From: a virus
Taxonomy: Duplodnaviria > Heunggongvirae > Uroviricota > Caudoviricetes
Reading direction: 5' to 3' (one strand)
IMG/VR virus record: IMGVR_UViG_3300042544_001887
DNA length: 64,000 nucleotides
Position numbers and translations under genes: made by a program. Numbering within the stretch: the stretch's first letter is position 1; each line of letters opens with the position of its first letter. Below the pieces are notes generated by a model. The model searched no databases. It was not told the origin of the DNA and was given only the letters and a program-made list of their open reading frames with translations. Positions 4,339-43,370 of the stretch are shown piece after piece.

Positions 4339-4851
4339 ATGAGGGTATTACTAATAATAACGCTATTATTATCTCTTTCTGCTTGTGCTGATTTTAAGAA
4401 AATTCTTCGACCCGAACCTACACCAGAACCGATAAAAACAGCAATAGAAAAAGTAGGTTGGAACGAGCATCAAGACCGCAGAGAAATAAGAGAATTTACT
4501 GGTGTAGATCCAGTAAGTACACAATGGTGTGCTGCGTTTGTAAACGCAGTTCTTGAAGAAAATGGGTTACCTGGATCGGAGTTCTATAACGAAAATCCAC
4601 TGTTAGCAAGAAGTTTTCTGTCCTGGGGTGTAGAGGTAGAAGAGCCCGAATACGGCGATATTGTAGTATTTGCTCGAGGCAATGAAGCTTGGAAGGGTCA
4701 TGTTGGGTTTTATGTAACTTCGACATATTTAGAAGGTCAAAAACACTACTTAGTTCTTGGCGGAAATCAAAACAACAGTGTCACATACAAAGCATATCCT
4801 ACTCGTAGACTGCTTTCTGTAAGACGACTTACAACAGAAGATACTGAATAA
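4339..4851 (+). CDS. lipoprotein, NlpC/P60-CHAP-like peptidoglycan hydrolase (TIGR02594-like)
   Basis: lipobox LSAC after signal peptide; motif WCAAFV...GHVGFY typical of phage CHAP/TIGR02594 proteins. Confidence 0.55.
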   Translation: MRVLLIITLLLSLSACADFKKILRPEPTPEPIKTAIEKVGWNEHQDRREIREFTGVDPVSTQWCAAFVNAVLEENGLPGSEFYNENPLLARSFLSWGVEVEEPEYGDIVVFARGNEAWKGHVGFYVTSTYLEGQKHYLVLGGNQNNSVTYKAYPTRRLLSVRRLTTEDTE

Positions 4852-5004: not shown

Positions 5005-5301
5005 ATGAATAAAATTCTAATTTCTGCACTTTTTGCCTTTGTTTCTACTGCTGCTACTGCAAAAACAGTTTATTACCCCGAAGCTGCATGTAACGAAATT
5101 CTCAGCAGCGAATACAGCACTGGTGGGGGTGATTCCAGCTGGGAGATGTACGAAATTCTTTGCCGTGACGCTAATGGAAAATACACTACCTTTGTTACCA
5201 GCTGGATGAGTGTTGCAGGGTTCTTTGGTATGGGTCGAGTTGCATACGAAGAAACGATTGACCTTGTACCCTACAACGGTACTACATTGAAGGCTGAATA
5301 A
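5005..5301 (+). CDS. small secreted protein (signal peptide)
   Basis: MNKILISALFAFVSTAATA signal; AAGGAAA RBS before internal ATG. Confidence 0.45.
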   Translation: MNKILISALFAFVSTAATAKTVYYPEAACNEILSSEYSTGGGDSSWEMYEILCRDANGKYTTFVTSWMSVAGFFGMGRVAYEETIDLVPYNGTTLKAE

Positions 5302-5302
5302 A

Positions 5303-5746
5303 ATGAAAATCGAATATCGTAAAGGCAACATGTTTGAAACTGACATCCTGCATATTGCACATGGCTGCAATGCACAAGGTGTTATGGGATCTGGCGTTGC
5401 TAAGATTGTAAAAGAAGATTACTTTGATGCATATCGTTTCTACGCAGAACAGTACGACGAGCATGGACTTAAATTAGGAGATGTGCAGTTTGTTCCTGCA
5501 AACGGCAAAGTAATCATCAATGCTGTTACGCAGAATCTGTACGGCAAAGACGGTCGTCGTTTTGTTAATTACGAAGCAGTTGCAGAGTGCATGAGAACTA
5601 TTAATAGTGTACTTAAGCAAAGTGGCGAAACTCATGTTGCTATGCCGCAAATTGGTGCCGGCCTTGGTGGCGGCGATTGGCGTGTGATTGAAGCAATCAT
5701 TGAAAGCGAAATGACAGACATTCAACCTGTGGTGTATGTACTGTGA
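5303..5746 (+). CDS. macro domain protein (ADP-ribose binding/processing)
   Basis: 147 aa; NAAN-like and glycine-rich GVMGSGVA motifs of macro domains. Confidence 0.65.
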   Translation: MKIEYRKGNMFETDILHIAHGCNAQGVMGSGVAKIVKEDYFDAYRFYAEQYDEHGLKLGDVQFVPANGKVIINAVTQNLYGKDGRRFVNYEAVAECMRTINSVLKQSGETHVAMPQIGAGLGGGDWRVIEAIIESEMTDIQPVVYVL

Positions 5747-5919
5747 CAACACCCTTAGCAGATCAGAAGATATTCTCACTCAATGATCTCATTGAAATGG
5801 GTCTTATTACACGTAAACAGTTAGAAGATCACATCCGATACATGGAAGCAAAACAGTTAGTAAAAGAACTGTTTCCAGGAATGTTTTAAAAATAAAGAAT
5901 AGGTAGCCGCGACTACCTT

Positions 5920-6047
5920 GGCTAGGAGACTATTTGCATTGTGCATCGTGGGGCCTTTGTGTAGTAGACTGTTTCGTCTAACGGAGAGGACGCCGGTGGA
6001 GATCCGGAGATACAGGTTCGAGTCCTGTAGCAGTTTTGCTCCTAGCC
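5920..6047 (+). ncRNA. tRNA-like small RNA (128 nt, 9-bp terminal stem, internal T-arm-like hairpin)
   Basis: ggctaggag/ctcctagcc stem; acagg-ttcgagt-cctgt hairpin; does not fit cloverleaf, no CCA. Confidence 0.3.
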
Positions 6048-6058
6048 AAAATAATTTA

Positions 6059-6134
6059 GCCTTCGTAGCTCAACTGGAAGAGCAAGGGATTTCTACTCCC
6101 TAGGTTGTGGGTTCGACTCCTGCCGGGGGCACCA
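6059..6134 (+). tRNA. tRNA-Arg (TCT)
   Basis: acceptor gccttcg/cgggggc (2 GU), loop ttTCTac, T-loop ttcgact, CCA. Confidence 0.65.
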
Positions 6135-6143
6135 AAAAAGCTG

Positions 6144-6172
6144 TTGACACAGACTTGGCACTATGCTACAAC
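6144..6172 (+). promoter_or_regulatory. sigma70-like promoter
   Basis: TTGACA-N17-TGcTACAAC. Confidence 0.4.
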
Positions 6173-6204
6173 AAGTTATTGAATAACACATGAGGAACAC
6201 TGAG

Positions 6205-6594
6205 ATGAAGACTGCTTACAAGAACCGTGACGGCGAATGGGTTGTGGCCGAGCAGATCAAGATGAGCCGGTATGACCTTGAAGGTTCGGTAGATTCGATT
6301 AAGGCTGCACTGGACGAGGTTCGCGACCGTGCTACCGCAATGGGTATGGTGGGTGAAGGCACTGTTGACATCAGCCTGAACCGCGGCTTCTACTCGGACG
6401 ACTACGAAATAGAAGTGGAATACTCCTTCACTCGGTATGAATACCCTGTGGAGATGGAGCGGCGTTTGGAGCGTGAGGCCAAGGATAAGGCTGCGGCTGC
6501 TGCCAAGCGTAAGGAAGCCGCCCAGAAGCGGAAACTCAAGAACGATCCTGAGTATGTGGAGTTTGAACGGCTCCGGGCCAAGTTTGGTGGTTGA
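6205..6594 (+). CDS. hypothetical protein (GC-rich cassette 1)
   Basis: GAGGA RBS; local GC well above window average. Confidence 0.45.
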   Translation: MKTAYKNRDGEWVVAEQIKMSRYDLEGSVDSIKAALDEVRDRATAMGMVGEGTVDISLNRGFYSDDYEIEVEYSFTRYEYPVEMERRLEREAKDKAAAAAKRKEAAQKRKLKNDPEYVEFERLRAKFGG

Positions 6595-6619
6595 CAACAC
6601 TCTCCTGCTGTGCTATAAC
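6591..6619 (+). promoter_or_regulatory. sigma70-like promoter
   Basis: TTGACA-N17-TGcTATAAC. Confidence 0.5.
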
Positions 6620-6650
6620 AACAGCATAGGGCAACACGAGGAGAAATCAA

Positions 6651-6998
6651 ATGCCTTGTAGAGTCAACGACGAAGACTGGAAACCGCGTAAAGAAACCCG
6701 CCACGGGATGGATATCGAATCTTTCGAAGCTACACTTTGCGGCGTCTTCACTGCTGCAGAGGAAGGCGCCTTTGCGCCTACGGTTGTTGGCGGAGTTGAT
6801 GGCTTGCTGGATGTGATCGACTGGAAAGAAGCCGGAGTGAAACGCAAGACCGTTGAAGCATGGTGGAAGCGGCATAAGGCAGAAGATGCTGCCCGCCTTG
6901 CTCGCGAATCTGCTGAACGGCGTAAGGCTGAACTCAAGCGGATTGCGATCGGCAAACTCACTGCAGAAGAACTGGAAGTGTTGGGGATCAAACTCTAA
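6651..6998 (+). CDS. hypothetical protein (GC-rich cassette 2)
   Basis: AGGAGA RBS; 115 aa. Confidence 0.45.
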   Translation: MPCRVNDEDWKPRKETRHGMDIESFEATLCGVFTAAEEGAFAPTVVGGVDGLLDVIDWKEAGVKRKTVEAWWKRHKAEDAARLARESAERRKAELKRIAIGKLTAEELEVLGIKL

Positions 6999-7008
6999 CA
7001 CTTTCTGG

Positions 7009-7037
7009 TTGACATCCTACCTACACCGTGCTATGTA
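7009..7037 (+). promoter_or_regulatory. sigma70-like promoter
   Basis: TTGACA-N17-TGcTATGTA. Confidence 0.45.
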
Positions 7038-7069
7038 TATTGTATAGGGCAACAAGAGGACAACCACAG

Positions 7070-7321
7070 ATGCCGAATCCTGCTACTGCTCCCCGTGACG
7101 AATTGAACGAGTTTACTCGCTCTGTATGGCTGCTTGGTAACAGCAACTGGGGTAATCACGGTGTACGTCTTCGGAACGGGTTGATTGTCAAACCGATCTA
7201 CAAGCCCGCAGAAGACGAGACCAGTGAAGATGCATTCTTCACCGAAGACTATGAATACTGCTGGAACCTGGACGGCACTTCGGTAACCCGCAGGGACTTT
7301 GATATGATGGAGATCGTGTGA
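7070..7321 (+). CDS. hypothetical protein (GC-rich cassette 3)
   Basis: AGAGGA RBS before ATG at 7070. Confidence 0.4.
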   Translation: MPNPATAPRDELNEFTRSVWLLGNSNWGNHGVRLRNGLIVKPIYKPAEDETSEDAFFTEDYEYCWNLDGTSVTRRDFDMMEIV

Positions 7322-7322
7322 T

Positions 7323-7730
7323 ATGATCAGAGACCTATTCGTTCCTGTGGCTGAACTGCTGTTCTGGTTCACCGGCGGAGAACTACTGCTGAATACCTGG
7401 TGGTTCTTTGTGTGGGTTGTTGGTGGTGCGTTCCTTGTAACCTTGCCGCTGTGGTTAGGTATGCGTCTGGCCAGACGTGGTAGTAACCTCAAGTGGATAC
7501 CTGGCACACTCTTCCTAGTCGGCTTCTTCCCTGCCTTACTGCTGATCACCAGCCCAGGCATCATCCAAGCCGACTTGATGGAAGAATGCCTACCCGTCCA
7601 GACCGTAACAGTGGATACCGCACAGGTCAAAGGTATTGAAGTTCGAGTTCGCCAGTGTCGCTTCAAGGCCAACTACTATGACAAAAATTATGGTGAATGG
7701 CAAGCCTGGGCGGTTGACCGGCACCAATAA
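7323..7730 (+). CDS. membrane protein, 3-4 predicted TM helices
   Basis: hydrophobic segments; ATG overlaps upstream stop. Confidence 0.45.
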   Translation: MIRDLFVPVAELLFWFTGGELLLNTWWFFVWVVGGAFLVTLPLWLGMRLARRGSNLKWIPGTLFLVGFFPALLLITSPGIIQADLMEECLPVQTVTVDTAQVKGIEVRVRQCRFKANYYDKNYGEWQAWAVDRHQ

Positions 7731-8015
7731 CTGTATTATAAGCTGCATAAGGAGAGACCGGCAACTTGTGTAGTGCATGTAGTGACGACTTGCGGATAAC
7801 AGGTGGGATCGTGACATGTTGTAAATCTTTATGTAAGGGGTCGACACTTTATATAGAGAGAACGCTGCATACGCTGTGGGACCTCGGCGTATCATTAAGG
7901 TGATCAAATCACGCAGGGGTAAAAGCCCTAATGAGGGGTCCTAGGAATTAAAGGAAATACTGTGAGATATAGAAAGTTTTACGACGACTTCTAGGCTATA
8001 ACCTAGGAGAATCAA

Positions 8016-8222
8016 ATGGCAAAATCACCTGTTTACGGCAGAGGCCGTAATCGTAAACATAGAGGGCACCGCGGCCCTGTTCACGCTGCGGCTGCTAACA
8101 TCAATATGCGTGGCAAAAAAAGCAAACCTGACCACTGCTGGTGCTGTATTTGTATTGACATGCGTGAAGATATCTTGTATCGTATACACAAGAAGGAGAT
8201 GAGAGATGAAAGAGACACGTAA
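8016..8222 (+). CDS. small basic Cys-rich protein
   Basis: 68 aa, GAGAATCAAATG RBS, CWCCICI motif. Confidence 0.35.
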   Translation: MAKSPVYGRGRNRKHRGHRGPVHAAAANINMRGKKSKPDHCWCCICIDMREDILYRIHKKEMRDERDT

Positions 8223-8730
8223 GTATCTAGTATTTTTAGACATTGACGGCGTTTTTACTAGCTCTCGTGTTCACTTTGCACACGCTGCTGCTTATGAAAT
8301 GTGGCACAGATTTGATCCTGTAGCAGTTGATTTTATGAACAAGATTCATGACAGATATCCTGTGGAGTTTGTGATCATGAGTACTTGGAAGGACAACCTT
8401 CGCAGTGACGATAACAACGTAAAACACTGGGTTCATGCTGCGTTTGGCAACAGTGGCTTTCGTGGGCAACTTGCTACACCTTGGAAAACAGATCCTGACA
8501 ACGTCATCTGGCAGCGTAAAGGTGCAAATGATCGTGCCTACGAAGTAAAAGAATATTTAGAACTATACGCAACAGATATAAAAGATTACATTTTGTTTGA
8601 TGATAATCGCTATCAATTCAAAGAAGTGCTAGGCGTTAATCGCCTAGTTCATACAGATCACGAAAATGGTCTGTTATACAAGCATATGCTAAATGCTCAT
8701 AGTTTGATGGGACAGTGGCACGAGCGGTGA
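8206..8730 (+). CDS. HAD-superfamily hydrolase-like protein
   Basis: motif I FLDIDGV, C-terminal FDDN motif; paralog of 14923 and 20422 ORFs. Confidence 0.5.
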   Translation: MKETRKYLVFLDIDGVFTSSRVHFAHAAAYEMWHRFDPVAVDFMNKIHDRYPVEFVIMSTWKDNLRSDDNNVKHWVHAAFGNSGFRGQLATPWKTDPDNVIWQRKGANDRAYEVKEYLELYATDIKDYILFDDNRYQFKEVLGVNRLVHTDHENGLLYKHMLNAHSLMGQWHER

Positions 8731-11088: not shown

Positions 11089-11325
11089 ATGACTTATATG
11101 GCTACATTGTGGTATGCTGGTGCTGTGGTTATGCAACTAGGTTCGGAAGGACAAAATCTTAATGATTGTGAAATGTTAAAAACTATGATGATCACTGACA
11201 TTGAACAAACATATTCCGATCCTAGTAAAATTGATGAACTTTCTAAATCAATTTTTCCTACAAACCAGTTTGAAGTAACCTGTGAAACACAGTTGCTTGC
11301 AGTTGATGAGAAATACAAAAAATGA
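11089..11325 (+). CDS. hypothetical protein
   Basis: 78-aa ORF. Confidence 0.4.
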   Translation: MTYMATLWYAGAVVMQLGSEGQNLNDCEMLKTMMITDIEQTYSDPSKIDELSKSIFPTNQFEVTCETQLLAVDEKYKK

Positions 11326-11714
11326 CATCTAAACTTTATATTGTTATGCGGCGTGATCTGTGGGATATGAACCCAGGCAAGGCTATGGCACAGGCTGCTC
11401 ATGCTCAAGCAGACTTTGACCTGTATATGTTTGCTGATCCTAAAGCTGCAAAAAGCAAAGAAATTGCAGATGCTGTAATAGCATGGCGTGAAGATAGGCA
11501 TTTTGGCACTACGCTAGTGCTGCACGAACCAGTGGATACATTTGACAAGATTTCAATGAATGTAGCACATTGGGGCTACGTTACTGATCCTACATATCCG
11601 TACCGTAACTATTACGGTGAAGTGTTTCTTCGTAGCGAAGTTACCTGTATGTGGGTATTTGCCTACACTGAAGCAGAACTAAAATATATGAGTCAATTTG
11701 ATCTTCACCGTTGA
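11322..11714 (+). CDS. PTH2-family peptidyl-tRNA hydrolase-like protein
   Basis: YIVMRRDL...GKAMAQAAHA resembles PTH2 signature (VVRxDLxMxxGKxAAQxxHA). Confidence 0.5.
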   Translation: MTSKLYIVMRRDLWDMNPGKAMAQAAHAQADFDLYMFADPKAAKSKEIADAVIAWREDRHFGTTLVLHEPVDTFDKISMNVAHWGYVTDPTYPYRNYYGEVFLRSEVTCMWVFAYTEAELKYMSQFDLHR

Positions 11715-11739
11715 CCTTAGGTCAGCTTGATGCTATGTT
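11711..11739 (+). promoter_or_regulatory. sigma70-like promoter
   Basis: TTGACC-N17-TGcTATGTT. Confidence 0.45.
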
Positions 11740-11771
11740 ACATACACAGAGAAACAACTTAGGCACAAAAC

Positions 11772-13910
11772 ATGATTATTAATTCAACTCCGGACAATAT
11801 TGCAACTCTTGGCAACATTGATCAAGTCAGCGAATTTAAAATTCGCAACAGTGCAAAGGCATTTGGCATTCTTTCGAGTGGGCTTTATGCAAACAAAATT
11901 CGAGCAATCATTCGAGAACTAAGCTGCAATGCTGTTGATAGCCATGTTGCAGCTGGCATTCCTGATATTACTTTTGACGTGCATCTTCCTACTCCGCTTC
12001 GTCCGTACTTTTCTATTCGCGACTACGGAACCGGTTTGAGCCACGATCAAGTCCTCAATATCTACACCACTTACTTCGAAAGCACCAAAACTAACAGCAA
12101 CGACTTTATCGGTGCATTGGGTCTTGGATCAAAAAGTCCTTTTAGCTATACTGACAATTTTACTGTCATTGCAATTAAAGATGGCAAAAAAGGTGTTTAC
12201 AGTGCATTTATCAACGACAACGGTGTTCCTGCTGTTGCTGTGATGGGCCAAGGAGATACCGAAGAACCTGCTGGTGTTGAAGTTAAATTTGCAGTTACTG
12301 ACAGCGACGACTTTCACAAGTTTAAGTACGAAGCAGAACAAGTTTATCGTTATTTTGCACTTAAGCCTAATTTTACTGGTGCAGAAGTTAAACTTACTGC
12401 CGTTGAGTACTCTGTTGAAAACGTTATTAATAATGTTCATCAACGTGCAGATGTTGACTATCGTAGCGGTCGTACAAATCGTGCAATTATGGGCAATATT
12501 GAGTATCCTATCGAGCTTCCACGTAAAAATACAGAACTCGGAGAACTAAGCCACATTGATAACAATAGTCTTGATCTGTTTTTTGAAATCGGTGATTTGG
12601 ATTTCCAAGCAAGCCGCGAAGGGTTGCAGTATACTGAAAAGACTATTGCATCTATTTTGGCAAAATATCGCGAAATTTCAGATGTTCTTGCAGAAAAGTT
12701 TGCCAAGGAAACCGCAGGCATTAAAAATAAATGGGAACTTGCAAGGTTTGTAGTCAATCAATGCAATAGCCAATTGTGGTCTACTGCTGCAAGACAGTAT
12801 GTTAGCAAACATAAAGTTCCGTTTGTTCACTGCTATTCACACGGTCACGCATATCTAACTGCTGCCGATGTATCAATCAAGGTCATCGAAGAACAGTTCA
12901 ATATTTCTGTACGAGCTTTCACAGTCGACGACGGATACAGCGTAGATCGTACTTCTAGTGAAGTTAAGCCTAGCTATAGTCAGACTTTCTCAGTTTGCCC
13001 AAGCCAAAACATGAAATTTGTAAAAAACCCTGAGAATAAAAAAATCTGGGAACAAAGTAAGTATCACTTCAAGACGCAGACTGAGGGTAAACATCTTGTG
13101 TGGGTATTGTATGCCAAGGATCCTGCTAAGCCTGTGCTGTTTGACAAGTTTTTTAAGTTCATTTACGATCCTCCCGAAAACAGTATTTTTGAAGTAGAGA
13201 ATCTTGTTAAGAAAGAAGTTAAACAACGGCAAAAACAAAACAGAAAGATTTCTACTCTGCGTCTTGCTTATCGTCAAAGTAGTTATAAGGACGAGTGTGT
13301 TTGGGAGCCTTATGTTCTCGATCAGACCCAACAACAGACTGAAACCAACTATTATGTTCCGATCAAAGGTTACCAGGCGTTTGACCGTAATAATCAACCT
13401 ATTGACATCAAGCAGTATTATATGCAACTGATGAAAAGTAAGAAAAAGGAATTTCACAAGCTTCGAGTGTTTGGTGTTCGCCAGGACGACATTCCTGTTG
13501 TCGAAAGCCAAAGTAATTGGATTTTGCTGGATGACTTTCTTGCAGTTGAACTTGGACGGGTTACTAAAGAAGATTTCTTTGGAATGATTGTTGCTTCGGT
13601 TGACAAGAATAATTCAAGAATGTATACTTCAGAAAGGATCATGAAAAACTTAGATCCTAGCAGTCCGTTTGTACTGTTTGGTTCTAAGGCAACTACGGCA
13701 GAAAATAACACACTTCATTATCTTGCTGACTTGTGTAAAATTTATGCACCTGCGGTAGACGTAGAAAATCTTAAAAATGAGGCAAAAGCTGAAATGGAAA
13801 AGATTCAAACACGCTATCCTATGTTAAAACTTCTCCGCAACGGTTATTACGACGACCCGGCTGTGGTAGAATATATCCAATTCGTCGATCAACACAAAGG
13901 ATTGAACTAA
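11772..13910 (+). CDS. rIIA: rIIA-like protein (GHKL ATPase N-domain)
   Basis: 712 aa; Bergerat N-box ELSCNAVDSH and G1 box DYGTGLS; size and pairing with downstream ORF as in T4 rIIA/rIIB. Confidence 0.55.
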   Translation: MIINSTPDNIATLGNIDQVSEFKIRNSAKAFGILSSGLYANKIRAIIRELSCNAVDSHVAAGIPDITFDVHLPTPLRPYFSIRDYGTGLSHDQVLNIYTTYFESTKTNSNDFIGALGLGSKSPFSYTDNFTVIAIKDGKKGVYSAFINDNGVPAVAVMGQGDTEEPAGVEVKFAVTDSDDFHKFKYEAEQVYRYFALKPNFTGAEVKLTAVEYSVENVINNVHQRADVDYRSGRTNRAIMGNIEYPIELPRKNTELGELSHIDNNSLDLFFEIGDLDFQASREGLQYTEKTIASILAKYREISDVLAEKFAKETAGIKNKWELARFVVNQCNSQLWSTAARQYVSKHKVPFVHCYSHGHAYLTAADVSIKVIEEQFNISVRAFTVDDGYSVDRTSSEVKPSYSQTFSVCPSQNMKFVKNPENKKIWEQSKYHFKTQTEGKHLVWVLYAKDPAKPVLFDKFFKFIYDPPENSIFEVENLVKKEVKQRQKQNRKISTLRLAYRQSSYKDECVWEPYVLDQTQQQTETNYYVPIKGYQAFDRNNQPIDIKQYYMQLMKSKKKEFHKLRVFGVRQDDIPVVESQSNWILLDDFLAVELGRVTKEDFFGMIVASVDKNNSRMYTSERIMKNLDPSSPFVLFGSKATTAENNTLHYLADLCKIYAPAVDVENLKNEAKAEMEKIQTRYPMLKLLRNGYYDDPAVVEYIQFVDQHKGLN

Positions 13911-14740
13911 TGTTTCCGTATATGATTCAAGGCAATAACATTGTTGTAGTTATCGGTACTCAACCGCATACTATCAACAAAACCCATGTTGCATACGAAA
14001 AGGTCAAAAACGCTATTCGTAATAACGACTGGGATACCGTAAAGAAAATTATCGACCCTGAGAAGGTTGTTCTCGATTATGGCAGCGGTCGTGTTGCTGT
14101 GCAAGGAGACAAGCTGTTCTGGGACGGTGTTGAAATGCACAACGCTCTGTCACGCCGCATGATTCAAATGCTGCAAGAAGACTTCCCGATTGAGCCGCTG
14201 GTTAAGTTTATGGAAAACCTCCACGAAAACCCGAGCTTCCGTGCAGTTAACGAACTGTATGGCTTCCTTGAAAAGAACAGCCTGCCGATTACTCCGGACG
14301 GTCACTTCCTTGCTTACAAGAAGGTGCGTGACGACTTTATGGACGTACACTCGGGCACTGTGTCTAACAAGCCTGCTTATGCGTTTACGGACGAAGAAAA
14401 AGCTGCTATGCCGTTAACTTCGGGTAAGAAAAAAGAAGTTTCTGTTGCACTCGAAAATGGTGTAACTGTTATCTCGATGCCGCGTAACATGGTCAATGAC
14501 GATAAGAATCAGACTTGCAGCGAAGGTTTGCACTTCTGCTCTAAAGAGTACTTGGGTCACTTCGGTGGTGAACGAATCGTGATCCTTAAAATTAACCCGC
14601 GTGATGTTGTTAGTATTCCTTCGGATTACAACAACAGCAAGGGTCGTGCTTGCCGTTACGAGATTGCTGGCGAACTTGGCGTTGATCCTGATACTGCATT
14701 TACTGCTGCTGTACAGGAAAATGCTAACACAGAAGCATAA
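13910..14740 (+). CDS. rIIB: rIIB-like protein
   Basis: 276 aa, start overlaps rIIA-like stop; position/size only. Confidence 0.4.
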   Translation: MFPYMIQGNNIVVVIGTQPHTINKTHVAYEKVKNAIRNNDWDTVKKIIDPEKVVLDYGSGRVAVQGDKLFWDGVEMHNALSRRMIQMLQEDFPIEPLVKFMENLHENPSFRAVNELYGFLEKNSLPITPDGHFLAYKKVRDDFMDVHSGTVSNKPAYAFTDEEKAAMPLTSGKKKEVSVALENGVTVISMPRNMVNDDKNQTCSEGLHFCSKEYLGHFGGERIVILKINPRDVVSIPSDYNNSKGRACRYEIAGELGVDPDTAFTAAVQENANTEA

Positions 14741-14922: not shown

Positions 14923-15366
14923 ATGTTAATCGTATTTGATATTGATGGAACACTGGCTAACATCGAGCATCGTTTGGACTATGTTCGTAGCAAGCCCAAG
15001 AACTGGGCTGCGTTTGATGCTGGCATTCCGAATGATAAAGTAAACGAGCCTGTAGCAGAAGCATTCCGCTCGCTGTCTGCATTTAACACTATCATTCTTG
15101 CGAGTGGGCGGAATGAGCGTAGTCGCTCTGCTACTGAAAAGTGGCTACAGAGCAATGGGTTTTATGAATACGAAAAACTCTACATGCGTAAGGCAGACGA
15201 CTTTCGCGGTGACGACATTGTGAAGCAGGAAATCCTGGATCAAATCGTTGCTGACTACGGTAAGAAGCCGGACATGGTGTTCGACGACAGGCCTCGCGTG
15301 GTTCGCATGTGGCGTGATAACGGTATCTTTGTGTTTAACGTATACCAAGGTGAGGAGGACTTCTAA
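14923..15366 (+). CDS. HAD-family phosphatase (PNK-phosphatase/5'-nucleotidase-like)
   Basis: motif I FDIDGT, SGR, MVFDDRP. Confidence 0.55.
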   Translation: MLIVFDIDGTLANIEHRLDYVRSKPKNWAAFDAGIPNDKVNEPVAEAFRSLSAFNTIILASGRNERSRSATEKWLQSNGFYEYEKLYMRKADDFRGDDIVKQEILDQIVADYGKKPDMVFDDRPRVVRMWRDNGIFVFNVYQGEEDF

Positions 15367-16475: not shown

Positions 16476-19400
16476 ATGAGATTAAGAAACCTTTTTGAAG
16501 TACAAGTGCAACCAGGTGAACGCAGAGGATTTTCGCTGCGGTTGAAGCGTCTTGAAGATTTGCAAGTAAAAATTGCAGAAATACAAAATACTATAAGCGA
16601 ACTTGGTAATGTTAGCGTTCCAGAAAACTTAAAAAAACAAATGGAAGATCTTATCGATGCTGCTAAAATAGAAAAAGAAAAAATCTATGCAGAAGTATCT
16701 GACGCAGAAGTAAAAAATCCAAGAATTCAAGGAATACCTGGATCTGTCATGAAGTTACTTAGAGGCATAGAAAAAAATGCTTCAACTATAATGAACGCAT
16801 ACAGAAAAACTGGAAAATATCTCTATAGAGGAATCAAATCTTCCGAAGACGCACTTTATGGAAAACCTTTTGACATCAGAAAAGCCAAGGATAGTAATGT
16901 AGATTTAAGTAATGCATTAAATCAATCCTTAGCAGACCAAGGATTTAATGCTAGAAGAGACAACACTACTTTTACTTCTGGTTCTTATAATCAGGCTAGT
17001 AATTACGGTACTGTGTATATAATATTTCCTAGAGATGGGTTCTCATTCCATTACAGTAAAAAGATAAGAGACCTTGTTTTAGATACCGGCAAGATTGATA
17101 TGTTACTGGATCCCGAAATAACAGGTTATATCGAAAGTGCTATACGTTCTAACTGGAGCAATCTCAAAAACTATTTTTCTTATAAATTTAGTGGAGATAA
17201 ATTCTTTACAGGTTATGAATATCAAAAAGATTTAGATGGGTTACAACGTGCAGTAGCAGACGGTGTGCTTCCACAAGAATTTGCAAAATATAAGACTTTT
17301 TATGATCTAGTTGATCCTGCAAAAGTTATAGCTAATTTTCAATACAATCAAACTGATCTCGACAGTGCTATAACTTCCGAACATGAAGTCATGATTACAG
17401 GACCGTATTATGCTGTTAAAACAGAGTCCTTTCAAGATTATATTGACAAATATATTAAAATGACAGCAAATGGTGAATTTGATGTCACTCCAGATAACAA
17501 AAAAGAAAAAACTACTTTAAATCAAAAAATACAATCTATAGTAGGCGGTTCCGCGCCTGAGTTTGCAATAGGAGATTGGGTGCAGCATAAGTACGAAGGA
17601 TTTAAAGGTGAAGTTGTTGACTATTACCATACCAATGACTTTGTTCAAATTAAAGATTATGCCGGAAAACTAAAATTAGTCAATAAGAAAAATATTGATA
17701 AAATTAAAACTCCTGAGATGCCCGACTACCAGCCCGGCGATAAAGTTTATCTAAGAACAAAAGACACAGAATGGGAATATTATAATAATAAAAAATACAA
17801 GGTAGTAGACTCTGATAAGTTTACCGTAACAGTTCAAAAAGGCAGTTACGACACCACAATTACATTACCTAAATTGTTAACCGAACCTGCTCCTAAATTT
17901 GATACCAAAGATCCAAGTGTAGGAGACACAGTTCATGTTACCAAGGGCGATTTTGAAAACATGTACGGAACTATTACATATGTTTCTAGTTACAGTAAAG
18001 ATATTGATGTTGACTTCGGAGACAGCGATTCGCACACTGTTCAAAAAGGATCTTACGAAGTTATTGATCCTGCAACAAAACCTGCAGATGCAAACTCTAT
18101 TGCATCAAAGTTTAAAGAAGGTGATTACGTTAGAATCTCTGACGACGGGTTTGATTACAGTGGTCTTGTAGCGGTAATTAATAAACCTGGTTTATCAAAA
18201 TCAAGAGTATATCCGTTCGGCGAAAAAAGTTATGCTTTAAGTATAAAAAATTCTAGATTAAAAGCTATTGATGAAGATGAATTTAAAAAACAATCGTTTA
18301 GCATAACAGATCAAGTAGTTGTATCTGGCGGCAAGCATGATGGAAAGAGTGGAAAACTTAATTATGTAAGCTTTGATGGAACTATGGAAATAGTTGTCAG
18401 TAGTGGTAACACCATAGAAGTACCCGGAAAATATGTTTTTAATCAAAACGTAAATGGTTCTCCTGAAAATAACGAGAATAAAGAAACAATTAAAAAAGGT
18501 GATTTTGTAAAAATCTCAGACGACTCGGACTTGTTCCCAGGTTCTGTAGCAAAAGTAGTTGTAAAGAATTCCGGCGAAAAATCTACAATATTAGTAAACA
18601 ACGACAACAATCTCGATTATATTATTGATACAAAATATCTAACCAAGATTGATGAAAATGAATTTAACAATAAAAAGCTGTCAACCGGCGACGAAGTCAA
18701 TGTCACAGACGGATATTATAAAGGAAAAACTGGAAAAATAAAATCGTTTGGGACTGATGGTCCTGTAAGAGTTGATATAACTTCGCCGTCCACAGGGGAT
18801 ACATTTACAATTAAGGTACTTCCACAATACTTGGAAAAAATAAATCAAAGCAGTGACGACTTAATTGATTTAATGGATCTTGAGTTTGAACCGATGGACG
18901 AGCCTACTGATTTTAAAAATAATGAAACTAAAAAATTTAAAGTCGGCGACAGCGTAAAAGTAATTAATGGTAAACACAAAGGAAAAACTGGAAAAATAAA
19001 TTACCTATATACGTATACAAAAGAAGCGTATGTTGACTTCGACGGTGAATATCACGACATTGAGTTAAAAGACTTAGAGTTAGACAAAGAAGAATCAAAA
19101 ACTGATAGCAATTTTAACAAAGACGAATTAAAAAAGCTAATCAGTCAAGGAAAAGAAAAAGGTTTTATAACCTATAATCAACTAAACGATGTAGTGCCTT
19201 CGGACAAAGTTACTTCTGAAGAAATTGAAGATATAATGGATATGTTAAATGAATTAGGAATCAATTTAGTTGATGCTGAAAAAGACTCGGCTCCATCAGG
19301 TGAAACTCCACAGGAATTACAAGCAAGAATAAACGATCCAGATACAAAAGCGTTCCTTAAACAAGCATTTGCAGATCCTGATGTAAAAGAACTAGTGAGT

Positions 19401-31073: not shown

Positions 31074-31102
31074 TTGACTCTGCTCTCAAGAGTCGCTATA
31101 TT
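31074..31102 (+). promoter_or_regulatory. sigma70-like promoter
   Basis: TTGACT-N17-TATATT. Confidence 0.55.
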
Positions 31103-31128
31103 CTAATACATAGAGCAAGGAGATACAA

Positions 31129-34250: not shown

Positions 34251-34340
34251 GGAGAGTTGGTTGAGCGGCCGATAACACTCGTCTACTAAACGAGCAGGGG
34301 GTAATGCCCCTCGTGGGTTCGAATCCCACACTCTCCGCCA
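34251..34340 (+). tRNA. tRNA-Ser, type II, apparent anticodon ACT (A34)
   Basis: acceptor ggagagt/actctcc, anticodon stem ctcgt/acgag with loop ctACTaa, long variable arm, T-loop ttcgaat, CCA. Confidence 0.6.
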
Positions 34341-37736: not shown

Positions 37737-37812
37737 GTCGCGTTAGCAAAAGGTTAATGCGTGTCCTGTGCAAAGGACAAGGACGGTGGTTAAACTCCCC
37801 GACGCGACTCCA
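37737..37812 (+). ncRNA. atypical tRNA-like gene (perfect acceptor+CCA, 8-nt anticodon-position loop, degenerate T-arm)
   Basis: acceptor gtcgcgt/acgcgac, D-stem gca/tgc, stem tgtcc/ggaca with loop tgtgcaaa, no TTC T-loop. Confidence 0.35.
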
Positions 37813-42269: not shown

Positions 42270-43370
42270 TTAGTAACTTAACTGCAATAATCAACAGTTT
42301 AGCGAAAGGCTAAAGATTGTGGTTGTGCTGAGTAATTAACAGTTTAAATCAGCAAGTGATGCGTGATTAGGTAAACTGTTGTTTATTGCAGTTTTTAAGA
42401 TGGGCGGCTTAGCGTCCACGTAAGGGTAAGTGCGGTAACGCACCCAAAGGCAGGTTTCCTATAAACTGCCGCCAGCAATGGTCCACCTAAGCAAGCCTGA
42501 ACTAAGGTTGACTCGGTTTAACCCGAAAGCAACCTCCGTCCTTAGGCGGGCGGTAGGCAGTAAGTTAGAGTTGTAGTCCGAAAGGATAGGCACAGAGCCG
42601 GTCGGTGAGTGCTAAGAGGCTGTGGTGGCTGAACTGCAACATACCAAACTAACGAATGCTGAAGGTTAACAGGTAGCTACACTGTCTGAGCCCGCAAGCA
42701 AAGGCATGGTAGCATCACAAGAGTGGAAGGGTTAGGCCCCGGATACTTGAAGTGACGTTGAGTAGCTCGCAAGGCAAAAGACAGTCGGTGTGTTGTATAC
42801 TGTATCTAACAAGGTATGGTGCAACTGGGACAGCACATCGAAGTAGGTTCGCAATATTGCATAACGGTAATGCAATCGTCTTATGAAACGATGGATTGTA
42901 GGTTCAACTCCTACTATTGAAACAAAAGCGAAAGACTGTCCCGGTACGTTGTGAAAGGTGGTTAATGCCACACTCGCAAGAGAATGTGGTCTACGGATGC
43001 TCGCAAGGCTGATGTAGTTGTTCGGAAAGATAGCGTAAGGGTTTAGCGACTCTGAACTGCTCGCAAGGCAGACGAAGGATAGAAGGACGAGTAGCAACGT
43101 GCGACGAGAGAAACGCCACTCTCCAAAAAAGGCACCACTGGGAGATACAGGATGACCGTAAAAGGCTTCTGTGGATAACGAGAGAACGTGGCTCGCAAGG
43201 CTAACGGTAATGCTCAAAGGCTCCTAACGCAAGGCATAATCTCAGCCTATGCAAAAGTTTAAGTTTTAACTAACTTAACTTGTTGAACAGTTTTCGAGTT
43301 CCGACCCACTTGGAAGTAGGCGACTACTCCATTTCCGAGACTGTTCAACTAGTTAAGTTTCTACTTTAAA
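42270..43370 (+). ncRNA. large structured non-coding RNA candidate (about 1.1 kb, ORF-free, GNRA-rich)
   Basis: no credible ORF on either strand; seven cgcaag motifs, four as GCTCGCAAGGC; many local and long-range stems; lies between boxA leader and tRNAs. Confidence 0.4.

Follow-up and report, generated by a model that had tools for sequence, protein, structure and literature searches.

The stretch of DNA analysed here, referred to as the window, is 64,000 nucleotides in length and comes from a T4-like jumbo phage that has not been cultured. It contains rIIA and rIIB and 33 tRNAs; rIIB, TK and RNA ligase are annotated in a T4-like context, and rIIA shares 31-38% identity with Straboviridae. 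Exact proteins of the window recur on contigs up to 330 kb. The 64-kb window covers part of a genome of ~330 kb, and the composition ranks and motif counts given below for this phage refer to the window only. The genome is of the lytic, T4-like type and is not a prophage. In a region of tRNAs and small ORFs lies a GC-rich block of ~1.8 kb (6135 to ~7945) with four small genes and three predicted promoters, called the island in the following. Its features and landmarks are these:

6059..6134, plus strand: tRNA-Arg(TCT), the left landmark of the insertion (ARAGORN; Rfam 61.5 bits)
6144..6172, plus strand: predicted promoter P1, TTGACA, 17-nt spacer, TGcTACAAC (sequence match)
6205..6594, plus strand: ORF1, 129 aa, with an alpha/beta domain at the N-terminus and then a long, charged helical hairpin (AlphaFold pLDDT 82.6)
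6589..6643, plus strand: predicted promoter-leader element P2, GGTTGACA-N14-TGCTATAAC-N6-ATAGGGCAACA-cGAGGAG, fitting the consensus of 152 metagenomic copies
6651..6998, plus strand: ORF2, 115 aa, all-helical (model pLDDT 83.7)
6970..7010, plus strand: stem-loop across the 3' end of ORF2, abutting the P3 -35 (-19.1 kcal/mol, z = -3.5, 0/200 shuffles)
7007..7060, plus strand: predicted promoter-leader element P3, GGTTGACA-N14-TGCTATGTA-N6-ATAGGGCAACA-aGAGGA, a direct repeat with P2
7070..7321, plus strand: ORF3, 83 aa, of a broad small-protein family (NPAT..ELNxFT..VxLRNG..CWNLDGxS..DMMEI)
7323..7730, plus strand: ORF4, 135 aa, a two-pass inner-membrane protein as predicted by hydropathy
7731..7947, plus strand: non-coding tail of the inserted block, known only from contigs of the same phage, no Rfam match
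7948..8015, plus strand: right landmark, a conserved upstream segment in single copy (..GAGATATAGAAAGTTTTACGACGACTT..), at which the window again becomes similar to the phages L162 and L163

The island proteins had no usable match among the sequence profiles of Pfam, PHROGs, PADLOC, NCBIfam and PDB; PHROG matches at E ~0.01 and an ABC-F match at E = 0.076 were treated as noise. Homologues of ORF1 form 17 clusters (90% identity clustering) at 46-100% identity, and their alignment shows a conserved C-terminus, ...DPEYxEFERLKAKFGG. A generic ferredoxin-like fold (PII, Alba, CutA) was considered for ORF1 and not adopted, as the PDB fold matches had E > 0.1, and no function was assigned from them. 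ORF2 is represented by 51 clusters (90% identity clustering) whose members share 47-95% identity with it and lie on T4-like contigs of up to 356 kb; an MPC N-terminus, Cys30 and a C-terminal ...GKLTAEELEVLGIKL are invariant. The ORF2 model found no fold match in PDB or BFVD. The ORF3 family comprises 87 representative clusters (50% identity) at E <= 1e-3, with zero matches in Pfam, PHROGs and PDB. A weak match of ORF3 to a Listeria-Bacteroides repeat protein (E = 6e-4) was judged probably due to chance. Searches of GenBank phages, by megablast and blastn for the island, megablast for the flank and tblastn for ORF2 and ORF3, returned nothing.

ORF4 homologues form 23 clusters (90% identity clustering) at 52-94% identity. 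Its hydrophobic spans lie at about residues 27-47 and 59-81, and its C-terminal domain carries two Cys that are invariant in the alignment, C89 and C112. The stop codon of ORF3 (TGA, 7319-7321) is followed by the ATG of ORF4 at 7323 in the arrangement TGAtATG, with GGAG 10 nt upstream. A preliminary description of this DNA had named the fourth gene as a small membrane protein translationally coupled to the third, and this agrees with the junction and the two hydrophobic spans. In relatives, a small upstream gene overlaps ORF4 in every case, and these overlapping genes come from four unrelated families. ORF4 probably acts at the cell envelope, e.g. as an exclusion or lysis-timing factor, and ORF1 and ORF2 appear to be soluble proteins with charged helices. 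All four may serve dispensable host-interaction functions. The antisense ORFs at 6402-7001 and 7031-7672 on the minus strand were rejected as real genes, since the plus-strand ORFs have conserved metagenomic families, Shine-Dalgarno sequences and coding-type codon-position composition; the longer antisense ORFs are by-products of GC-rich sense codons.

The GC content is 0.514 in 6135-7740 versus a window mean of 0.397. The top GC peak of the 64 kb is a 1606-bp segment from 6071 (GC 0.520), and the runner-up peaks are 0.483 at 21.2 kb, in coding sequence, and ~0.467 at tRNA clusters. GC3 is 0.62, 0.51, 0.58 and 0.58 in ORF1-ORF4 (plus strand), compared to 0.24-0.37 in the neighbours. When codons were scored by the synonymous-codon log-likelihood under the usage of the 51 other window genes, ORF1-ORF4 gave z = -5.7, -4.2, -3.5 and -5.6, each below the worst background gene. 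The preliminary description was right that local GC is well above background and that codon usage diverges. It had also stated that similar GC elsewhere would speak against acquisition from outside, and in part this is seen, as the backbone at 21.2-22.8 kb reaches GC 0.48. Conserved-backbone genes with GC3 of 0.47-0.52 also exist (rIIB at 13910-14740, the gene at 14923-15366 and RNA ligase at 21523-22680), indicating that high GC alone is no proof of foreign origin.

It is unlikely, though worth serious consideration, that the four genes are native early genes in which GC-rich, C-ending codons are kept by selection rather than recently acquired; immediate-early proteins would then be translated with host tRNAs before the 33 tRNAs of the phage accumulate. 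Island homologues have a high GC3 in every phage examined (0.44-0.66), whatever the resident genome, as seen for ORF1 in L019 (0.59, at a locus GC of 0.405) and L062 (0.66) and for ORF4 in L093 (0.63). Selection on composition could explain these homologues as well as repeated transfer. In L022, 12 kb rich in the promoter-leader element have GC 0.48-0.52 and the adjoining core genes 0.36-0.42, and at 25 loci the genes driven by the element exceed distant sequence by 2.1 GC points (p = 0.012). The codons preferred in the island, TTC, ATC, AAC, GAC, CAC, ACC and CTG, are also in line with such selection. However, other window genes with sigma-70-type promoters have an ordinary GC3 (0.24 at 4339-4851, 0.37 at 5005-5301 and 0.37 at 8206-8730), and the genes are missing from the same slot in L161-L163 while occurring at other loci in relatives. 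Moreover, the non-optimal codons CGG, TCG, GCC and AAG are enriched too, as would be expected from a general GC shift more than from translational selection. The simple form of a transfer model, with L022 as a GC-richer donor phage, was rejected, as only its cassette array is GC-rich. The GC-rich cargo of these AT-rich, tRNA-rich genomes raises the question of whether early host-like codon selection or rapid gene flux is responsible.

All three predicted promoters fit a near-consensus sigma-70-like layout by sequence, with TTGACA, a 17-nt spacer and a TG-extended -10. P1 has its TTGACA at 6144-6149 and an extended -10 ending at 6172; in P2 the TTGACA is at 6591-6596 and TGcTATAAC ends at 6619; in P3 they are at 7009-7014 and, as TGcTATGTA, up to 7037. 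The preliminary description had given TTGACA-N17-TGcTAtaac before each of ORF1-ORF3. The -35 and the TG extension are present at all three sites; the -10 hexamers are TACAAC, TATAAC and TATGTA. All of them lack the final T of the consensus, which makes the predicted strength of P1-P3 doubtful. It had further placed the overlap with a preceding stop codon at the first promoter; it is the second that overlaps, the TGA of ORF1 (6592-6594) lying inside the -35 hexamer of P2. TTGACA-N14-TGNTAT (<=1 mismatch) occurs 15 times in the window versus 2.3 times expected, and a degenerate copy of the element is found at 31074.

A 36-nt repeat and, in addition, the -35 are common to P2 and P3. P1 lacks the conserved ATAGGGCAACA leader and has an A-tract upstream (AAAAAAGCTG). 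Within the window an A/T-rich tract upstream of the -35 is seen only at P1, as P2 and P3 abut coding sequence. The core of P2 folds at -10.1 kcal/mol (z = -2.1), the core stem of P3 is weak (z = -0.8), and folding found no significant stem-loop at P1. The hairpin at 6970-7010 gave z = -4.7 in a second folding test; no U-tract follows it and it is not kept downstream of ORF2 homologues at other loci. On the plus strand, 6000-8000 contains no terminator-like site and no U-tract terminators. The tail at 7731-7947 belongs to a 291-nt fold (z = -3.0), and Rfam detected two tRNAs and nothing else over 5700-8300.

P2 and P3 are members of a family of elements of ~55 nt, GGTTGACA-N14-TGCTATA-N8-ATAGGGCAACA-SD. 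In 152 unique copies the consensus is conserved even at positions that the search pattern left free, and it includes aAaaaA at -10 to -5. The leader ATAGGGCAACA is an almost invariant 11-nt initial transcribed sequence and forms the 3' arm of a stem, with the promoter spacer tending to pair with it around the -10 hexamer. In 200 unique copies the core had a mean MFE of -13.3 kcal/mol and a mean z of -3.5, with z < -2 in 55%, and z was near 0 in the flanks. Pairing is strongest in the proposed register, and two compensatory examples are found. A literature search for the leader sequence returned unrelated primer matches only.

Downstream of the element, 225 unique proteins fall into 101 clusters, with a median length of 78 aa; in related phages the element stands in front of ~100 different small-gene families. 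The paired leader could instead be read at the DNA level: ATAGGGCAACA and its inverted copy in the spacer would be an operator for a dimeric phage regulator, or a dedicated recombinase site, rather than forming a stem-loop in RNA or serving passively as homology. A dyad of >=9/11 bp centred on the -10 is present in 25 of the 200 copies, 18 of them perfect, and the pair counts are bimodal; Arbiol et al. speculated that the conserved stem of PeSL (promoter-early stem-loop) cassettes may be a protein target (PMC2839356). On the other hand, most copies retain only 5-6 proximal pairs, the full dyad is absent from the copies in the window, and the element has no regulator or recombinase candidate linked to it. 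At the loop-adjacent position, G is opposite T in 57% and A opposite T in 27% of copies, which is closer to what pairing in RNA or in a single strand would give than to a symmetric duplex site. We regard a DNA-level site as very unlikely.

The island occupies a slot between a Macro-domain gene (5303-5746) and a HAD gene. In L161 these two genes are separated by 18 nt and the slot is empty. In L162 and L163 the tRNA-Arg(TCT) is present and other genes then fill the slot; similarity to both ends exactly at the 3' end of this tRNA, with P1 beginning 10 nt past it. At the right landmark (7948-8015), which precedes the o68 and HAD genes in the window, an unrelated 184-aa gene follows in L162 and L163. 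Elsewhere, L019 is collinear with the window over 12.9-22.4 kb, yet an ORF1 homologue is located there between the homologues of 20422-20943 and 20990-21523, preceded by a P1-like promoter, TTGACT-N14-TGCTAT. The 3' end of ORF1 together with the element leads into three different next genes in the window, L019 and L062, and the similarity of the window to L019 breaks a few bases past the leader; in L022 and L024, ORF1 is coupled directly to the next gene. Homologues of ORF4 have other partners elsewhere in L024, L022 and L093. It can be seen that the homologues of ORF1, ORF2 and ORF4 occupy differing sites in related phages. Among the genomes compared, no close relative differs by the island alone, and the recombination event itself is therefore not caught.

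These findings suggest, with a probability of roughly 0.7, that a block of ~1.8 kb made up of PeSL-type accessory-gene cassettes entered the tRNA/early region at a hypervariable slot. PeSL cassettes have been described in the T4-type phages RB49/phi1, T4/PST and KVP40/nt-1 (PMC2839356; PMC4122927), with the stem-loop in five positional subclasses, one of them overlapping the -10 (PMC2839356). To judge from its sequence, the P2/P3 element is a predicted composite of promoter and stem-loop of this type. As in PeSL, a composite of ~50-100 bp is repeated, with a near-consensus sigma-70-like -35/N17/-10, a Shine-Dalgarno sequence and a start codon; at the level of the family, rather than at each window promoter, an A/T-rich tract and a stem-loop belong to it too. 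It lies between small ORFans of hyperplastic regions and at junctions of insertion, deletion or replacement between relatives, and the stem-loop over the -10 seen in the family corresponds to the described subclass. A stem-loop upstream of the -35, the classic PeSL layout, is not present at P1 or P2. Several differences exist. The element makes up a new sequence family, marked by the extended -10 TGCTATA and a near-invariant ATAGGGCAACA; it has no G-run/C-run stem, and within the window a clear core stem is seen only at P2. It spans many uncultured aquatic jumbo phages rather than one phage pair, and its cargo is GC-richer than the backbone. The island is a fresh example of known T4-like accessory-gene shuffling and no new kind of system.

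The ORFan-rich early and tRNA regions of T4-like phages offer a similar picture: numerous short early genes lie near a phage tRNA cluster, each behind its own strong sigma-70-type promoter, and most are non-essential and vary between relatives. T4 early promoters are of the GTTTAC/TATAAT type, whereas TTGACA, TGCTATA and a conserved leader are found here, and the island stands out from its backbone in GC to an unusual degree.

The preliminary description had seen in the island horizontally acquired morons or anti-defence cargo. Morons, a concept of Juhala and Hendrix, reportedly belong to lambdoid and other temperate phages. The island resembles them as extra genes with their own promoters and a composition unlike the surrounding genome, placed between genes that are adjacent in L161, and the neighbouring Macro-domain gene would suit a role in blocking host immunity. 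Host-takeover and anti-defence functions are known to come from small, fast-evolving early proteins encoded in the hyperplastic regions of T4-like phages. Internal proteins are discussed in PMC4122927. Nevertheless, classical morons, that is, autonomous promoter-gene-terminator units directed against host immunity, are a highly improbable description. The island has no terminator, ORF3 and ORF4 share one promoter, and several tandem cassettes use one promoter family; in a virulent-type, T4-like genome, prophage expression is inapplicable. Neither sequence comparison of ORF1-ORF4 with the profile libraries named above nor fold comparison of the ORF1 and ORF2 models revealed similarity to characterised anti-defence or defence proteins, or to other characterised proteins, and ORF2 and ORF3 are broad and conserved, which is not necessarily expected of a narrow arms-race factor. 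What stands of the earlier proposal is a set of self-promoted genes of atypical composition in a variable slot, with homologues elsewhere, and the island can fairly be called "horizontally exchanged, moron-like cargo".

If the PeSL-type insertion is accepted, expression and exchange can be outlined as follows. Host sigma-70 RNA polymerase would start at the three near-consensus -35/extended -10 promoters early in infection. As no intrinsic terminator lies between the units, nested early transcripts would be expected to span ORF1, ORF2 and ORF3 with ORF4, the last being translated by coupling to ORF3. P2 and P3 would be copies of a portable element of ~55 nt (A-tract, GGTTGACA, 14-nt spacer, TGCTATA, ATAGGGCAACA, Shine-Dalgarno), and such copies could offer enough homology for T4-type recombination, for which <50 bp is reported to be sufficient. 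We infer that recombination between copies may swap, insert or delete the intervening genes, and exchange of this kind would account for ORF1, ORF2 and ORF4 being found at different sites with different neighbours.

A bolder form of this proposal is that the element serves as the joint in an integron-like system of gene capture borne by phages, through which AT-rich aquatic T4-like jumbo phages share a pool of at least 100 small-gene families with GC ~0.5; the exchange site would itself carry the signals for transcription, attenuation and translation, possibly with a protein recognising the ATAGGGCAACA dyad. The likeness to integron cassettes, which is an analogy only, includes a big pool of unrelated small genes, a short and partly palindromic joint, and arrays. 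In contrast to integrons, an integrase or attC-type site was not identified, each cassette has its own promoter and the mechanism suggested above is general homologous recombination. This extension is considered distinctly improbable.

The result for the window itself is modest, as the island is an ordinary kind of accessory block. Its wider meaning is that PeSL-type modular shuffling would reach beyond three cultured T4-like pairs and take in a widespread clade of uncultured aquatic jumbo phages. The element, as TTGACA-N14-TGCTATA-N8-ATAGGGCAACA, is exact enough to be searched for and flags early accessory genes in metagenomes. With it, ~100 or more small early proteins can be collected as candidates for host takeover or anti-defence, and recombination joints can be located in huge phages. 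The exact element pattern, with its 20 specified bases, is matched by more than 120 metagenome stretches, and a scan of IMG/VR gave only 11 matches, mostly single. Density reaches 2.4 copies per kb in short metagenome contigs, and L022 carries at least 13 copies within ~10 kb; another count gave ~20 copies within 12 kb.

The GC-rich island, which extends from 6135 to about 7945 and carries ORF1 to ORF4 with promoters P1 to P3, is distinct in composition from the rest of the window. The GC content of 6135-7740 is 0.514 against 39.7% for the window, and the highest value in the whole 64 kb belongs to a 1606-bp interval beginning at 6071 (0.520). The next-highest coding peak, at 21.2 kb, reaches 0.483. 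Codon z is the score of a gene under the synonymous-codon usage of the 51 other window genes.

Genes and promoters of the island
6205-6594, plus strand: ORF1, 129 aa; GC3 0.62; codon z = -5.7
6651-6998, plus strand: ORF2, 115 aa; GC3 0.51; codon z = -4.2
7070-7321, plus strand: ORF3, 83 aa; GC3 0.58; codon z = -3.5
7323-7730, plus strand: ORF4, 135 aa; GC3 0.58; codon z = -5.6
6144-6172, plus strand: P1, TTGACA-N14-TGCTA...
6591-6619, plus strand: P2, TTGACA-N14-TGCTA...
7009-7037, plus strand: P3, TTGACA-N14-TGCTA...

The codon scores of all four genes lie below those of every one of the 51 background genes, and the neighbours have GC3 of only 0.24-0.37. The preliminary description of elevated GC and different codon usage is thus borne out, and the feature is real and correctly placed. 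The whole-window profile locates the GC maximum at the island; however, GC3 near 0.5 also occurs in some backbone genes (rIIB, 14923-15366 and RNA ligase). ORF1 to ORF4 are real genes: for every one of them, metagenomes hold a conserved family that could be aligned. Longer antisense ORFs were rejected as artefacts of the GC-rich sense codons.

As had been proposed, ORF1, ORF2 and ORF3 are each preceded by their own promoter, recognized by sequence match. All three have a consensus -35 and, after a spacer of 17 nt, a TG-extended -10 whose hexamer lacks the final T, and the -35 of P2 contains the ORF1 stop codon. The suggested coupling of a small membrane protein to the third gene also holds, with ORF4 starting one base past the ORF3 stop. 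A relative with an ORF4 homologue, L023, encodes a full-length sigma-70 of 485 aa (11242-12699; regions 1.2, non-essential, 2, 3 and 4); therefore, both host and phage sigma factors might read the consensus promoters of these phages.

The likeness of P2 and P3 extends past the hexamers, with the leader ATAGGGCAACA seven bases after the -10, then GAGGA and the start codon. This composite of about 55 nt (-35, N14, TGCTATA, conserved leader, SD), here called the element, is the main interest of the island, because the island reveals how widespread it is. Within the 64 kb, the leader occurs only at P2 and P3 and in one degenerate copy at 31074-31128 (TTGACT-N14-CGCTATATT-...-ATAGAGCAAGGA). That copy precedes a low-GC gene of 49 aa, and therefore the element family also has a member outside the GC-rich island. 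The element is much commoner in relatives. In L022, a 374-kb contig with ORF1, ORF2 and ORF4 homologues, it precedes almost every small gene across about 12 kb, and a scan of metagenome contigs with an exact pattern of 20 specified bases found it in at least 120 stretches. The consensus of 152 unique copies is aAaaaA..GGTTGACA-N14-(t)gTGCTATA.taaAtgtATAGGGCAACA.A..aaa.ggg, in which positions left free by the pattern are also strongly conserved. The proteins directly downstream (225 unique, median 78 aa) fall into 101 BLASTP clusters, so one putative promoter family would drive roughly 100 families of cargo genes.

The element is also predicted to contain a stem-loop. Over 200 unique copies, the folding energy of the 42-nt core from spacer to leader averages -13.3 kcal/mol, with a mean z of -3.5 versus shuffles (below -2 in 55%), and the 45-nt flanks on both sides have z near 0. 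Spacer positions 10-19 pair best with the leader in the proposed register. At least 9 of 11 pairs form in 25 copies, about 1 in 8, and two copies have compensatory changes on both arms that keep the pair. The well-paired copies, from L022 (6140-8680) and further metagenome loci, have a nearly perfect dyad of 11 bp (spacer TGTTGCCCTAT versus leader ATAGGGCAACA) centred on the -10 hexamer. In the window, the P2 core stem is moderate (z = -2.1), and P3 combines a weak core with a strong hairpin immediately before it (6970-7010; -19.1 kcal/mol, z = -3.5). Folding found neither structure at P1, and no U-tract terminator was found in the island.

Comparison of relatives suggests that the ORF1, ORF2 and ORF4 genes move between sites. 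L019 is collinear with the window over 12.9-22.4 kb, and it carries an ORF1 homologue between homologues of 20422-20943 and 20990-21523, which adjoin in the window. In L024, ORF1 adjoins the 20990 homologue, and an o48-83aa-ORF4 group lies between homologues of 22680 and 22925. In L093, a few kb separate ORF4 from genes homologous to those at 25.6-26.7 kb of the window. ORF2 homologues occur in very different T4-like contexts; the one in L018, for example, has UvsY/UvsW and nucleotide-metabolism genes nearby. Where the ORF1 3' end is joined to the element (…TTTGGTGGTTGACAAC…), the next gene is ORF2 in the window; L019 has an unrelated gene of 91 aa there, and L062 has one for a membrane protein. 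Window-L019 similarity stops a few bases past the leader. In L022 and L024, where ORF1 ends in …GGAGGTTAAnATG, the gene that follows is directly coupled to it. The two forms of this end are a few substitutions apart (window 6592-6596; L022 9165-9175, L024 6325-6335): GGTGGTTGACA places the stop within the -35 of the following promoter, and GGAGGTTAAnATG supplies an SD and stop. ORF4 homologues always overlap or abut a small upstream gene, with partners from four unrelated families in different phages, and no promoter of their own was found at these loci (window 7319-7325; L022 9828-10408; L023 2459-3105; L024 8519-9168; L093 4351-4955).

The block itself appears to be an insertion in a variable slot, bounded by a Macro-domain gene (5303-5746) on the left and a HAD gene (8206-8730) on the right.

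Content between the Macro-domain and HAD genes
L161: 18 nt only
L163 (382-kb contig): 80-aa gene, tRNA-Arg(TCT), tRNA-like stretch, 184-aa gene
L162: o48 homologue, 76-aa gene, tRNA-Arg(TCT), genes of 93, 184 and 63 aa
Window: o48, two tRNAs (the last tRNA-Arg(TCT)), island, 285 nt non-coding, o68

The similarity shared with L162 and L163 breaks off at 6134, precisely where tRNA-Arg(TCT) has its 3' end, and returns at about 7948 with the single-copy segment GAGATATAGAAAGTTTTACGACGACTT, upstream of their 184-aa gene. The non-coding 7731-8015 (285 nt, after ORF4) has a predicted fold with several hairpins that is more stable than those of shuffles (z = -3.0), and it matches no Rfam family. Its final 60 nt or so are conserved before the unrelated 184-aa gene in both relatives, and a hairpin in its end spans the SD of the gene that follows. 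Additionally, about 105 nt directly 3' of tRNA-Arg(TCT) in L163 (6750-6860) have tRNA-like acceptor and T arms. This stretch, called by neither ARAGORN nor Rfam, may be a tRNA that has decayed or that contains an intron.

The plus strand of the window encodes rIIA (31-38% identity to Straboviridae rIIA), rIIB, thymidine kinase and a T4-type RNA ligase. Metagenome contigs from JGI, NCBI and Logan, the longest reaching 330 kb, carry proteins identical to the island's own, and a nucleotide-level search of GenBank phages gave no match. The window therefore belongs to the genome of an uncultured T4-like jumbo phage. It carries 33 tRNA genes, and some tRNA calls are unusual: a 72-nt tRNA-Leu(GAG) that lacks the long variable arm (5966-6037), tRNA-Ser(ACT) (34251-34340), one with undetermined anticodon (37737-37812) and one with a 4-nt anticodon, TATG (42850-42923). 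A 1019-aa protein (16476-19535), for which precomputed Pfam gives Sigma70_r1_1 and faint KOW-type domains, is kept in L019 at 63% identity.

Promoter-early stem-loop cassettes (PeSLs) are repeated intergenic composites of the hyperplastic regions of T4-type phages (PMC2839356, Arbiol et al. 2010; PMC4122927, Comeau et al. 2014). In each of them, SD and start codon are preceded by an A/T-rich tract, a sigma-70-like promoter and a stem-loop, and the position of the stem-loop varies: upstream, between the boxes, or overlapping the -35 or -10 (PMC2839356, PMC4122927). PeSLs are found at insertion, deletion and replacement junctions, and their recombination yields mini-circles (PMC2839356, PMC4122927). 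Judged by sequence, the element as a family appears to share this layout of tract, promoter, stem-loop and SD, and also the location at junctions; the window's own copies show the stem-loop only in part. The earlier moron-like reading is essentially right, but the island is not a classical moron, because it lacks terminators and lies in a virulent-type T4-like genome. It seems better described as PeSL-type cassettes, a further case of an already known kind.

In L022 (1-20408), the element-rich small-gene array has a GC of 0.48-0.52 versus 0.36-0.42 for the adjacent DnaB and carbamoyltransferase core genes; therefore, the GC contrast of the window is a general property of these cassette arrays. 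One explanation for the GC-rich cargo is repeated exchange from a shared pool, which fits the shifting gene positions. The other is that selection favours host-like codons early in infection; this would agree with the contrast within L022 and with the high GC3 that persists in every lineage, but it is weakened because other window genes with sigma-70-type promoters have ordinary GC3.

Homology and fold searches assigned no function to ORF1-ORF4, and no match to a known anti-defence or defence family was found. Our working view is that they may be dispensable early host-interaction proteins, with ORF4 acting at the envelope. ORF1 is modelled as a small alpha/beta domain with a long charged helical hairpin, and ORF2 as all-helical; in the ORF2 alignment, the MPC N-terminus is invariant and the LTAEELEVLGI tail is conserved. 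ORF4, with two hydrophobic spans, is a predicted inner-membrane protein, and its C-terminal domain, which contains two invariant cysteines, is probably periplasmic according to the positive-inside rule.
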